64,000 nt of DNA from Escherichia coli (GCF_044324875.1 NZ_CP172186.1); one strand, 5' to 3'; positions 38,301 through 44,300 are shown, numbered from the stretch's first letter. Made by a program: the numbers.

Positions 38301-41300
38301 GTACAGTTCGGGCATCAGGATTATGCCGCTTTCCTCACAGAGAGGAATTATCGTAGCATTCCCCGTAGTGATGCCATGTGGCAACTGGCTGTCCAGCTGG
38401 GAAATAGTGGATTTATCAGGCCGCCGAAACTTACTCACGCTGATACACGTATTCGTATAGAGCCCTTTTTTAACGCTGAAAATGAATACGACTGACATCG
38501 CAAAATAGTGGTAAGGCCGTCGGGGGCGGCCTTACTCCTTTATCCTGCCCAGTCTTCCAGTACCAGTCCAGGCACCCGCTCAAACTCTCTCACATTATTC
38601 GTCACCAGTATTGCCCCGGTGGCGATGGCGTGCCCGGCGATCGCCGTGTCGTTCGGACCGATCGGCGTGCCGGCGAGGCGCAGCGCCACCTTAACCTCCG
38701 TGGTTGCATCCACCGCAGCGCGATCCCAGGGCAGGATGGCATCGAGACGGGCGCAGAACGCGTCAACCAGCTGCACGTGGCGTGGCGATGCCTTTGGACC
38801 GGTGGCGCCGAAGCGCATCTCGGAGTAGGTGATGGCCGAGACCACTATACGGTGACCGCGCAGCACCGCCTGCTCCAGATTCTTAAGCACTGCTTCAGGC
38901 TGCTCGCGCATGATGAACGAGCAGATGTTCGTGTCGAGCATATAGATCTTGTTCACAGGTTAAATCGTCCTTCGTCGCAGACAACGTCCTCGCGTTCCGT
39001 CATAAAGCCCGGATCGGCCTTTTCTAGCTCCAGGAATGAGCTCCAGCTCGGGCGGAGGGGACGCAGAATGATTCTGTCCCCTTCCCGTACAATCTCCAGC
39101 TCACTCACCCCCTCAAAATCCAGATCGCGGGGCAGACGGATCGCGCGGTTATTGCCATTTTTGAAAATAGATACGGTTCTCATGTCTTCCTCCTGGCAAG
39201 ATGGCTTTTATATATGTTTAGTATATGCAGATGTGATACATATGTATATGTTATAGATATGCAGATGTGTGAGATATGCGTATGCCTGTCATATGCAGAT
39301 GCCAAACATATGGATATGCATGGTATCTGCATGTTTCTCTCTTTTTTCACCGGGATCCGAAAAATATCAGTCACGGATCTTCCTCTCCCCCACACAACAC
39401 CACCTCCTGTAAGTACAACATGTAGTACTTCCTTCGGCTGCTCATGACACTATATGTTGTGTTATTTCCCTGACTTGTGATGCGCCACGCAGGGGCGGAA
39501 AACAGCGATATGATGATTTCCTCATCGTGTAGACTGGCCCCCTGAATCTCCAGACAACCAGTATCACTTATTTAAGTGATAGTCTTAATACTAGTTTTTA
39601 GACTAGTCATTGGAGAGCAGATGATTGATGTCTTAGGGTAAGCGTACAGCCTGAACCGTCTGGTCAGAATCTGACGAATTAGACAAAGTGGTGTCCACCA
39701 AATAAGTAGTGGGAACCAAAGTGTCAGATATGCAGAAAAATGTGACTCCCGGCAGGCGAAAAGGCTGCCCTAATTATCCTCCCGAATTTAAACAGCAGCT
39801 CGTTGCTGCCTCCTGTGAACCCGGGATATCCATCTCAAAACTTGCTCTTGAAAATGGCATTAACGCCAATCTGTTGTTCAAATGGCGACAACAATGGCGC
39901 GAGGGAAAGCTGCTATTACCTTCTTCAGAGAGCCCCCAGCTACTTCCTGTGACTCTCGATGCAGCTGCCGAACAGCCAGAATCGCTCGCAGAGGACCCGG
40001 AAACCCTCAGTATCAGCTGTGAGGTAACGTTCCGGCACGGGACGCTCCGCTTCAATGGCAATGTCAGCGAAAAGCTCCTGACTCTGCTGATACAGGAACT
40101 GAAGCGATGATCCCTTTACCTTCCGGGACCAAAATTTGGCTGGTTGCCGGTATCACCGATATGAGAAATGGCTTCAACGGCCTGGCTGCGAAAGTACAGA
40201 CGGCGCTGAAAGACGATCCCATGTCCGGCCATGTTTTCATTTTCCGGGGCCGCAGCGGCAGTCAGGTTAAACTGCTGTGGTCCACCGGTGACGGACTGTG
40301 CCTCCTGACCAAACGGCTGGAGCGTGGGCGCTTCGCCTGGCCGTCAGCCCGTGATGGCAAAGTGTTCCTTACACAGGCGCAGCTGGCGATGCTGCTGGAA
40401 GGTATCGACTGGCGACAGCCTAAGCGGCTGCTGACCTCCCTGACCATGCTGTAAATCTCTTTATCCTGGTTGTCACAGAATAAGCCCGGTAAAATACGGG
40501 CTTATGAACGACATCTCTTCTGACGACATCTTCCTGCTGAAACAGCGCCTGGCCGAACAGGAAGCGCTGATCCACGCCCTGCAGGAAAAGCTGAGCAACC
40601 GGGAGCGCGAAATAGACCATCTGCAGGCGCAGCTGGATAAACTCCGCCGGATGAACTTCGGCAGTCGTTCCGAAAAAGTCTCCCGCCGTATCGCACAAAT
40701 GGAAGCCGATCTGAACCAGCTTCAGAAAGAGAGCGATACGCTGACTGGTAGGGTGTATGACCCGGCAGTACAGCGTCCGTTGCGTCAGACCCGCATCCGT
40801 AAGCCGTTCCCTGAATCACTACCCCGTGACGAAAAGCGACTGTTGCCTGCGGCGCCGTGCTGCCCGAACTGCGGCGGTTCACTGAGCTATCTGGGCGAGG
40901 ATACCGCCGAACAGCTGGAGTTGATGCGTAGCGCCTTCCGGGTTATCCGGACGGTACGGGAAAAACATGCCTGTACTCAGTGCGATGCCATCGTGCAGGC
41001 ACCTGCACCTTCGCGGCCCATCGAGCGGGGTATCGCCGGACCGGGGCTGCTGGCCCGCGTGCTGACCTCGAAGTATGCAGAGCACACCCCGCTGTATCGC
41101 CAGTCAGAAATATACGGCCGGCAAGGTGTGGAGCTGAGCCGTTCACTGCTGTCGGGCTGGGTGGATGCATGCTGCCGGCTGCTGTCTCCGCTGGAAGAGG
41201 CGCTTCATGGCTATGTCATGACTGACGGCAAACTCCATGCCGATGATACCCCGGTCCAGGTACTGATGCCGGGTAATAAGAAGACGAAGACCGGGCGGTT

Positions 41301-44300
41301 GTGGGCGTATGTTCGTGATGACCGCAATGCCGGGTCAGCGTTGGCACCTGCAGTGTGGTTCGCTTACAGCCCGGACAGAAAAGGCATCCATCCGCAGACT
41401 CATCTTGCTTGCTTCAGCGGTGTGCTGCAAGCGGATGCGTACGCCGGGTTCAACGAGCTGTATCGCAATGGTGGGATAACGGAAGCTGCCTGCTGGGCTC
41501 ATGCCCGCCGAAAGATCCACGATGTGCACGTCCGCATCCCGTCAGCACTGACGGAAGAAGCCCTGGAGCAGATCGGTCAGTTGTACGCCATAGAGGCGGA
41601 TATAAGGGGAATGCCGGCAGAGCAGCGGCTTGCTGAACGTCAGCGAAAAACGAAACCGCTGTTGAAATCCCTGGAAAGCTGGTTGCGTGAAAAGATGAAG
41701 ACCCTGTCGCGACACTCAGAGTTGGCGAAGGCGTTCGCGTACGCACTTAACCAGTGGCCGGCACTGACGTACTATGCGAACGATGGCTGGGTGGAAATCG
41801 ACAACAACATCGCTGAAAATGCCCTGCGGGCGGTAAGTCTGGGTCGTAAAAACTTCCTGTTCTTCGGCTCTGGCCATGGTGGTGAGCGGGGAGCGCTACT
41901 GTACAGCCTGATAGGGACGTGCAAACTGAATGACGTGGATCCAGAAAGCTACCTTCGCCATGTGCTTGGCGTCATAGCAGACTGGCCGGTCAACCGGGTC
42001 AGCGAACTGCTTCCGTGGCGCATAGCACTGCCAGCTGAATAACACATCCCCGTCAATACGGCCCTCGCTGTACGCTTACGTCTTAGGACCGGAGAAACGC
42101 AGACGGCGTACCACACAGGAAAAGATCGCAATTGTTCAGCAGAGCTTTGAACCGGGGATGACGGTCTCCCTCGTTGCCCGGCAACATGGTGTAGCAGCCA
42201 GCCAGTTATTTCTCTGGCGTAAGCAATACCAGGAAGGAAGTCTTACTGCTGTCGCCGCCGGAGAACAGGTTGTTCCTGCCTCTGAACTTGCTGCCGCCAT
42301 GAAGCAGATTAAAGAACTCCAGCGCCTGCTCGGCAAGAAAACGATGGAAAATGAACTCCTCAAAGAAGCCGTTGAATATGGACGGGCAAAAAAGTGGATA
42401 GCGCACGCGCCCTTATTGCCCGGGGATGGGGAGTAAGCTTAGTCAGCCGTTGTCTCCGGGTGTCGCGTGCGCAGTTGCACGTCATTCTCAGACGAACCGA
42501 TGACTGGATGGATGGCCGCCGCAGTCGTCACACTGATGATACGGATGTGCTTCTCCGTATACACCATGTTATCGGAGAGCTGCCAACGTATGGTTATCGT
42601 CGGGTATGGGCGCTGCTTCGCAGACAGGCAGAACTTGATGGTATGCCTGCGATCAATGCCAAACGTGTTTACCGGATCATGCGCCAGAATGCGCTGTTGC
42701 TTGAGCGAAAACCTGCTGTACCGCCATCGAAACGGGCACATACAGGCAGAGTGGCTGTGAAAGAAAGTAATCAGCGATGGTGCTCTGACGGGTTCGAGTT
42801 CCGCTGTGATAACGGAGAAAAACTGCGAGTCACGTTCGCGCTGGACTGCTGTGACCGTGAGGCACTGCACTGGGCGGTCACTACGGGCGGCTTCAACAGT
42901 GAAACAGTACAGGACGTCATGCTGGGAGCGGTGGAACGCCGCTTCGGCAACGAGCTTCCGGCGTCTCCAGTAGAGTGGCTGACGGATAATGGTTCATGCT
43001 ACCGGGCTAATGAAACACGGCAGTTTGCCCGGATGTTGGGGCTTGAACCGAAGAGCACGGCGGTGCGGAGTCCGGAGAGTAACGGCATAGCAGAGAGCTT
43101 CGTGAAAACGATAAAGCGTGACTACATCAGTGTCATGCCCAAACCAGACGGGTTAACGGCAGCAAAGAACCTTGCAGAGGCGTTCGAGCATTATAACGAA
43201 TGGCATCCGCATAGTGCACTGGGTTATCGCTCGCCACGGGAATATCTACGGCAGCAAGCCAGTAATGGGTTAAGTGATAACAGGTGTCTGGAAATATAGG
43301 GGCAAATCCAAAAAATACTTAGGAATAATTTATGTAAAACAGGTTGTCGTCTTCATGATTTAAACGCAGTACATATATATACTCTATAATAAATACAGGG
43401 AGTATCACGAGACGTCTGGATAAGAGGAATAACCAGAATAAATTGGTAAGGAATAAAGACACTTATTTCTATTGAGAAAAAACATTTATCCTGATGTGAT
43501 TAGTATCAATGAAATAATGTGCTTGTATGGTTGATAAAAATGCATCACTAAAGAAAAAACAGTATGAATAAGAATATACGAATTTTACAGTTTCTGGTCA
43601 GTATACTTTATTCTGTGCAGTCTCATTTTTCTGGTGCGCAAACAATACAACTGAATGGTAATGGTATACCTGAAAGTATAACCAGGAGTATTACAGGTGT
43701 TGATGGAAACGCGGCGCTTAATATCAGCGTGCCGTATAAAACAAGTTATACTCAAAATATACTATCTGTTGAAAGCAGTATTAACATCAAAGGAGGAACA
43801 AGCAATACATCAATCGGTGGTGCAGGTGTCTACGGTGAAAACTTTACGCTAAATAATAATGGTAGTGTTTGGGGAGGAGATGGATATAATGGTGGAGTTG
43901 CTGTTAGTGGCAACAAAATATCTATAAACAATTACAGAAATGTATATGGGGGTAATGGTCTTGGTGGCTCAGGAAGTAGCGGAGGTGCAGGGTTAAGCGG
44001 GGATGATATTATAGTTGATAATTACAGAAGTATATACGGAGGTGATGATCTAGGTGGGACAGGTGGTTCCGGTGTAACCGGGAGCAATATTACAGTGCAT
44101 AATTCCGGAGGAATATGGGGTGGTAATGGCGTAAACGGTGGTGATGGTATTAATGGTAGTAATCTTTTCATTACTAACGACAACATGATATCTGGAGGAT
44201 ATGGAATAAAACAAGGGGGAGATGCTATTTCTGGAAATCAAATCACTTTGAATAATAACGGTATTGTTCAGGGGGGATATGGCCCCGACGGTAGTTGCTC

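Follow-up and report, generated by a model that had tools for sequence, protein, structure and literature searches.

Does an insertion sequence (IS) that sits inside another one, between two perfect copies of an octamer, betray a recent transposition? The question is raised by a 64,000-nucleotide stretch of an Escherichia coli plasmid (GCF_044324875.1, NZ_CP172186.1), hereafter the window, in which two IS66-family elements lie inside resident elements of the IS3 family. One nest, an ISEc8 element within IS2, stands upstream of the adhesin gene aatA, and the other, an ISCro1 element within IS629, lies elsewhere in the same window. A preliminary description of the sequence had taken both for recent and independent insertions. 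We find that the nest in IS2 very probably arose by two successive ordinary transpositions, of IS2 and then of ISEc8 into IS2, followed by passive inheritance.

Anatomy of the nest in IS2

IS2 spans positions 39530-43310, where direct reading of the sequence gives its start (TAGACTGGCCCC / TAGACTGGCCCCCTGAATCTCC) and its end (GGGGCAAATCCA / GGAAATATAGGGGCAAATCCA). The IS66-family insert occupies 39638-42079 and measures 2442 bp, 10 bp more than the 2432 bp initially reported. It begins after ATGATTGATGTCTTAGG, 17 nt into orfA (insC), whose ATG is at 39621, so that both the coordinates and the gene content agree with the nesting as first described. When the insert and one copy of the flanking octamer are subtracted, exactly 1331 bp are left, which is the length of IS2. 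The parts of the nest, and the second IS2 copy of the window, are the following.

39530-39637, plus strand: left part of IS2 with the left inverted repeat, the leader and 17 nt of orfA/insC (sequence reading)
39630-39637: first copy of the target-site duplication, GTCTTAGG (a single octamer in uninterrupted IS2 copies)
39638-42079, plus strand: ISEc8 (IS66 family), 2442 bp, apparently intact (match boundaries in the Basic Local Alignment Search Tool, BLAST, and identity to other copies)
39638-39659, plus strand: left terminal inverted repeat of ISEc8, GTAAGCGTACAGCCTGAACCGT (repeat search and manual alignment)
39709-40110, plus strand: ISEc8 tnpA, accessory helix-turn-helix protein (Pfam HTH_Tnp_1, E = 1.8e-12; NCBIfam IS66_ISRel24_TnpA)
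40107-40454, plus strand: ISEc8 tnpB, IS66 Orf2 accessory protein, 115 aa (Pfam TnpB_IS66, E = 1.2e-38)
40504-42042, plus strand: ISEc8 tnpC, DDE transposase, 512 aa (Pfam IS66 domains; NCBIfam transpos_IS66)
42058-42079, minus strand: right terminal inverted repeat of ISEc8, ...GCTGTACGCTTAC (repeat search and manual alignment)
42080-42087: second copy of the target-site duplication, GTCTTAGG (sequence reading)
42080-43310, plus strand: right part of IS2 with the orfA remainder, the frameshift site, orfB/insD and the right inverted repeat
42436, plus strand: end of the IS2 orfA remainder
42388-42394, plus strand: IS2 A6G -1 frameshift site, AAAAAAG, in the orfA/orfB overlap
42394-43299, plus strand: IS2 orfB/insD (NCBIfam 'IS2 transposase TnpB', 301/301 positions, 713 bits; Pfam rve and HTH_21)
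5324-6402, minus strand: second IS2 copy, 3'-truncated, about 96% identical, uninterrupted at the ISEc8 target

The left part of IS2 and the first 108 nt of the uninterrupted copy carried by plasmid pPK8217-139kb (L009) share 100% identity. The termini of the insert read GTAAGCGTACAGCC from 39638 on the left and GCTGTACGCTTAC ending at 42079 on the right. A repeat search returned them as inverted repeats of 22 nt, 82% complementary, with a GTAAGCG start at both ends, and manual alignment shows the outer 13 nt (GTAAGCGTACAGC) to be perfect. The terminal repeats of IS2 were found by the repeat search to pair as well, imperfectly.

The flanking octamer

The octamer GTCTTAGG stands on both sides of ISEc8, at 39630-39637 and 42080-42087; a chance match of 8 bp at two fixed positions has a probability of about 1.5e-5 (4^-8). 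It occurs three times in the window, the third time singly, at 6295-6302 on the minus strand inside the truncated IS2. An 8-bp duplication is a reported hallmark of IS66 (PMC6778807). The repeats could in principle be the outermost bases of the IS66-family element rather than duplicated target, a reading to which GTCTTAGG lends some colour by beginning with G, like the IS end, as do all six ISEc8 duplications examined. Nevertheless, five independent ISEc8 copies from chromosomes and plasmids, with identical termini, are flanked by five unlike perfect octamers (GGTCAGCT, GAACAACC, GTTAAACC, GCGTAATC and GTTTCAAC), and in BLAST the matches to unrelated copies break off at 39638 and 42079. Furthermore, uninterrupted IS2 has GTCTTAGG once, exactly at the ISEc8 site, in the truncated copy of the window, in pPK8217-139kb and in pEc673-2 (L010), which answers the proposal that empty IS2 sites be sought. 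Because the flanks of ISEc8 vary between copies and uninterrupted IS2 has a single GTCTTAGG, the repeats are evidently a true target-site duplication, perfect in both copies as first described, and we give next to no credence to their being IS ends.

The same holds more widely, as thirteen other ISEc8 or ISCro1 copies carry differing perfect 8-bp duplications. Three further ISEc8 copies (L005, L007 and L014) have unmatched flanks, as expected after recombination. A 6-bp flank seemingly common to both IS2 copies of the window was dismissed as a chance BLAST extension.

The ISEc8 duplications (window, L006, L011, L012, L013 and L015) have G first in 6/6 and C last in 4/6 (G-N6-C), which may reflect a weak symmetric target preference. 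The G-N6-C pattern is not clearly seen in the ISCro1 duplications.

Identity and coding capacity of the inserted element

The insert has the same length and termini as the copies in E. coli O157:H7 named 'IS66-like element ISEc8 family' by the Prokaryotic Genome Annotation Pipeline (PGAP), and is 99.3-99.5% identical to them in nucleotides. For these reasons we assign it to ISEc8, with the PGAP-named copies serving as proxy for the ISfinder reference. Five further ISEc8 copies share identical termini and three of the five are also 2442 bp long; among the matches listed by BLAST, the ends of unrelated full-length copies lie a few bases at most from 39638 and 42079. The element is common: in 3,191 of the 5,426 complete E. 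coli genomes searched, a query made of ISEc8 and its 20-nt flanks is matched over 80% or more of its length.

All three gene products score above the NCBIfam cutoffs, with 97.4 bits for TnpA (IS66_ISRel24_TnpA, cutoff 74), 120 bits for TnpB (IS66_TnpB, cutoff 50) and 457 bits for TnpC (transpos_IS66, cutoff 180). TnpC contains the Pfam domains LZ_Tnp_IS66, zf-IS66, DDE_Tnp_IS66 (E = 9.4e-107) and DDE_Tnp_IS66_C. The start of tnpB overlaps the stop of tnpA, for which PGAP uses a later start (ATG at 39730, 126 aa; WP_001171554.1 in plasmid locus L001). As Han et al. are said to have reported in 2001, all three genes of IS679 are required for transposition. With three genes and both ends in place, ISEc8 appears structurally intact and is potentially still mobile; many identical copies of ISEc8 and of ISCro1 are found at differing sites.

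A hairpin lies over the tnpC start codon in both IS66-family elements of the window nests, formed from unlike sequences. In ISEc8 (40480-40506) it has a perfect stem of 9 bp, the 3' arm of which takes in the AU of the start codon AUG, and the region folds at -20.1 kcal/mol (z = -2.5). The ISCro1 counterpart (32846-32870, minus strand) holds the AUG in its loop and is not better than shuffled sequence (z = -0.7). Such hairpins may serve translational control of the transposase. A promoter and terminator scan of the nest gave fewer sites than shuffled controls and was uninformative.

Age and spread of the IS2::ISEc8 nest

Is the insertion then recent? We searched PLSDB and the 5,426 complete E. 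coli genomes with a junction probe, 80 bp across the left IS2/ISEc8 junction. Full-length matches were found in 8 PLSDB plasmids and in 25 of the complete genomes. All junction-bearing records are plasmids of 140-207 kb, mostly from poultry and from several continents (USA, Switzerland, Russia, Brazil and others), and the backbones carrying the nest include IncFIB/FIC and IncK2/Z. Over 3781 bp, 4, 8 and 8 substitutions and no gaps separate the nest from its counterparts in pAPEC-O1-ColBM, pCh101 and Br_112_kylling p1, respectively, and the annotation of these three plasmids shows the aatA-eit context to be common to them. Since the junction is widely shared and the copies differ by 4-8 single-nucleotide polymorphisms (SNPs), the nest is evidently one old event inherited with the aatA-eit module.

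The label 'recent' attached to this nest in the preliminary description does not survive these numbers. That the insertion happened recently in this particular plasmid might be argued from the perfect duplication and the intact open reading frames (ORFs) of ISEc8, which together with its 20-nt flanks is 100% identical to the pAPEC-O1-ColBM copy over 2482 bp. With identical junction and flanks on two backbones in several countries, however, we consider this very improbable: at a divergence of 4-8 SNPs per nest, the 16 bp of the duplication are expected to remain perfect, and a perfect target duplication is thus no evidence of recency. An interrupted IS2 upstream of aatA was, besides, already drawn in 2010. 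In that study, Dai et al. described aatA on pAPEC-O1-ColBM with IS2-like sequences in its 5' flank, and the legend of their Figure 2 reads 'IS2i: interrupted insertion sequence' (PMC2944236). The IS2::ISEc8 nest is therefore already known, being annotated by PGAP and present in GenBank since the deposit of pAPEC-O1-ColBM; a literature search for ISEc8-IS2 nesting by name found nothing.

The order of the two insertions can also be read. A synthetic empty-site query recovered three records whose IS2 is uninterrupted and has the same right junction towards aatA; in pEc673-2, one of the three, this IS2 holds GTCTTAGG once. Because pEc673-2 has the uninterrupted IS2 at the identical right junction, IS2 came first and ISEc8 second.

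A second nest: ISCro1 in IS629

The window contains a second, different IS66-family member with a duplication of its own in IS629 copy B, as first described; we identify it as ISCro1. The features of this nest and of the uninterrupted IS629 copy are as follows.

31060-35076, minus strand: IS629 copy B, interrupted, with the 3' end of orfB lost to the insert (arms match copy A)
31254-33952, minus strand: ISCro1 (IS66 family), 2699 bp, intact (NCBIfam TnpA, TnpB and TnpC above cutoffs)
33222-33899, minus strand: ISCro1 tnpA
32875-33222, minus strand: ISCro1 tnpB
31284-32855, minus strand: ISCro1 tnpC
16457-17766, minus strand: IS629 copy A, 1310 bp, uninterrupted, with a single GTTTTTCC at 16643-16650

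ISCro1 ends GTAAGCG...CCGGTTAC, its right end being GTAACCG rather than GTAAGCG, and is flanked by the duplicated GTTTTTCC at 31246-31253 and 33953-33960. It is 99.93-100% identical over 2699 bp to PGAP-named ISCro1 in eight other plasmids. ISCro1 was first named in Citrobacter rodentium ICC168, which has 24 copies (PMC3072379). The TnpC proteins of ISCro1 and ISEc8 share 59% identity. As the elements are distinct and the duplications separate, the two insertions were independent, in agreement with the original claim.

Aligned to IS629 copy A, the arms of copy B show 100% and 99.9% identity and overlap by 8 bp. Copy A thus represents the empty site, here within the window itself; the single IS629 of pCh101 is also usable for this purpose. 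Two plasmids considered as context-matched empty sites for copy B, pLH50-c-A and p135-1, were rejected because neither has an IS629 there.

For this nest, recency fares better. The window junction between ISCro1 and IS629 is absent from the 5,426 complete E. coli genomes and has no colinear match in PLSDB. As judged from these searches, the nest is plausibly private to the window plasmid and recent.

IS629 copies A and B bracket 13.3 kb within 16457-35076, a layout that resembles a composite transposon. The bracketed segment contains a raffinose/sucrose utilisation cluster (alpha-galactosidase, MFS permease, GH32 invertase, porin and regulator), a match to astA (EAST1) and an IS3-family element at 28972-30114. 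In pCh101, a single IS629 joins the left flank of copy A to the right flank of copy B, with no matching IS629 duplication.

Nesting of IS66-family elements in IS3-family elements

Next, we asked whether such nesting is special. Including the window, ISCro1 is found inside IS629-type elements at nine positions, eight of them in further PLSDB plasmids (loci L016-L024), and each nest has a perfect, differing 8-bp duplication. In the coordinates of IS629 copy A, the positions are 74, 187, 197, 231, 234, 275, 765, 842 and 984. Seven nests are co-oriented and two anti-oriented (p = 0.18), and the reverse nest, IS629 inside ISCro1, was found once (L020). IS66-family elements nested in IS3-family elements are thus common, and the window nests are ordinary.

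Two apparent regularities were discarded along the way. A co-orientation bias in the first five nests proved to be an artefact of joining matches on the same strand only; a query with inverted ISCro1 recovered the anti-oriented L019 and L021. An ISCro1 of a goat plasmid, seemingly at the same IS629 site in opposite orientation, aligned to a site about 10 bp away with the duplication CCGTAAGA.

Do IS66-family transposases preferentially target IS3-family DNA, or a stretch of it? Both IS66-family elements of the window nests do sit in IS3-family elements, and five of the nine or more distinct ISCro1 sites in IS629-type elements fall within 88 bp (simulation p ~0.009). This p value is nonetheless modest and post hoc, and the sample was chosen by searching for nests, without a denominator of non-nested copies. 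The nine duplications have no common motif, both orientations occur, and ISEc8 copies elsewhere are not in IS3 elements. Moreover, half of these plasmid regions is IS DNA, in which insertions are not selected against. We therefore regard targeting as unlikely. Its more specific form, in which IS66-family transposases seek out IS3-family elements and above all some 90 bp towards the 3' end of orfB in IS629, is quite unlikely. Were it true, the resident IS3-family elements of virulence plasmids would be put out of action systematically by the IS66 family. The most likely explanation is that nests accumulate neutrally in these plasmid regions, where ISs are dense and an insertion into one of them meets no counter-selection; it calls for no special mechanism.

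Proposed history and its weak points

The sequence of events would be as follows. IS2, a member of the IS3 family, would have inserted about 250 bp upstream of aatA on an ancestral E. coli virulence plasmid. ISEc8 would later have transposed into that IS2 at GTCTTAGG, 17 nt into orfA; TnpC would have made cuts staggered by 8 bp, as the duplication suggests, and gap repair would then have duplicated the octamer. The nest would have been carried passively with the aatA-eitABCD module among poultry-associated plasmids of the IncFIB/FIC (ColBM/ColV-type) and IncK2/Z groups. The ISCro1-in-IS629 nest, 8 kb upstream, would be a separate event of like kind, and much younger.

Several points weigh against this simple history. 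The plasmid with the uninterrupted IS2, pEc673-2, is only 97-99% identical and is thus a cousin, not the direct ancestor. The window IS2 is without its own 5-bp duplication, having TCGTG on the left and AAAAA on the right, so its left flank must have been exchanged since insertion and the history goes beyond two clean steps. The clustering of ISCro1 sites in IS629 makes a regional target preference possible. Finally, the chemical steps by which IS66-family elements transpose are, to our knowledge, still to be established, and the staggered cut is inferred from the duplication. The missing 5-bp duplication, however, reflects the later history of this IS2 copy and not its identity.

The same missing duplication could speak for homologous recombination between separate ISEc8 (or IS2) copies as the event that joined the left and right fragments of IS2. 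The plasmids are mosaic and IS-mediated recombination is evident nearby, with one IS629 in pCh101 against two in the window; in other plasmids ISEc8 adjoins an intact IS2. Against this, the two IS2 parts add up to the full 1331 bp once a repeat of exactly 8 bp is counted a single time, and recombination between unrelated insertions would yield non-matching flanks such as those of L005, L007 and L014. We hold this origin to be extremely improbable and retain the two transpositions. Plasmids H9-H13, in which the nest is covered in three pieces, were set aside as ISEc8 beside intact IS2, not nested.

Consequences for IS2 and use as a marker

Earlier work on IS2 places the promoter of orfA at its left end. 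ISEc8 separates this end and the first five codons of orfA from the remainder of orfA-orfB. In the orfA frame after the insert, there is no ATG, GTG or TTG before 42158 (codon 30), and the internal ORF aligns to no more of the Pfam model HTH_Tnp_1 (75 positions) than positions 25-74. With orfA split and no early start codon, the window IS2 would be unable to make its own OrfA repressor or OrfAB transposase in cis. Both ends of the interrupted IS2 are intact.

The biological weight of the nest is small, nested ISs being routine in accessory regions of E. coli virulence plasmids. Its practical value lies elsewhere: the IS2::ISEc8 junction is a lineage marker for one version of the aatA-eit module moving between IncF and IncK2/Z poultry plasmids, and the private ISCro1-in-IS629 junction could mark a strain or plasmid.

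Plasmid context of the nest

The gene downstream is aatA (43564-47061, plus strand), encoding an aatA-type autotransporter adhesin of 1165 aa (NCBIfam autotransporter beta-barrel domain; PGAP in L001 and L002) and starting 253 bp downstream of the right end of IS2. The segment that starts 162 bp to the left of IS2 and extends across aatA and eitABCD is 99.95% identical to pAPEC-O1-ColBM. According to Dai et al. (PMC2944236), the promoter of aatA lies no more than 100 bp from the ATG, and the nest is therefore expected to be without effect on aatA.

The region upstream of aatA (43311-43564) has received at least two independent IS2 insertions, both oriented alike. In about 16 complete-genome records, including pPK8217-139kb, a separate insertion placed an intact IS2 197 bp nearer to aatA and duplicated GTATC. 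This second site (4198-5528 in pPK8217-139kb) corresponds to 43502-43506 of the window, about 58 bp before the ATG, and falls within the 100 bp to which Dai et al. assign the promoter (PMC2944236).

Between aatA and eitD there is a third IS629-like element (47154-48443, minus strand), which shares only 92-93% identity with copies A and B. It corresponds to the IS629 noted by Dai et al. in the 3' flank of aatA (PMC2944236). Two diverged vapBC toxin-antitoxin copies, about 82% identical in nucleotides, are found at 38528-39171 and 58877-59874, the former immediately upstream of the IS2::ISEc8 nest. Beside vapC, a third IS66-family element is truncated to a remnant (37815-38462, minus strand, with an end GTAAGCGTCAACGG... 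at 37815), which encodes some 190 C-terminal residues of a TnpC that shares only 48% identity with the ISEc8 protein.

Comparison with known systems

The closest relative of the nest is the interrupted IS2 of pAPEC-O1-ColBM (NC_009837), which has the same nest, junctions and context and is 99.9% identical over the whole nest. Further upstream the two plasmids differ, and the IS629-raf-IS629::ISCro1 region is extra in the window. The independent IS2 of pPK8217-139kb has GTATC on both sides, unlike the window IS2.

ISEc8 of E. coli O157:H7 is alike in its 2442 bp, termini, tnpA-tnpB-tnpC layout and 8-bp duplication; the window element differs from it merely in its location inside IS2 and is otherwise another copy. 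ISCro1 of other records likewise has the same 2699 bp and 8-bp duplication at 99.9-100% identity, whereas the window site, nt 187-194 of IS629 (copy A, window plus strand), was found in no other record. In the IS66 family, terminal inverted repeats measure about 20-30 bp and begin with GTAA. Both window elements display the tnpA-tnpB-tnpC order, the GTAA-starting inverted repeats and the 8-bp duplication of this family. They thereby share with IS66 and IS679 the three genes, a DDE TnpC, GTAA inverted repeats and the 8-bp duplication, IS66 and IS679 being other members, those studied by experiment, whose likeness to the window elements is one of family features.

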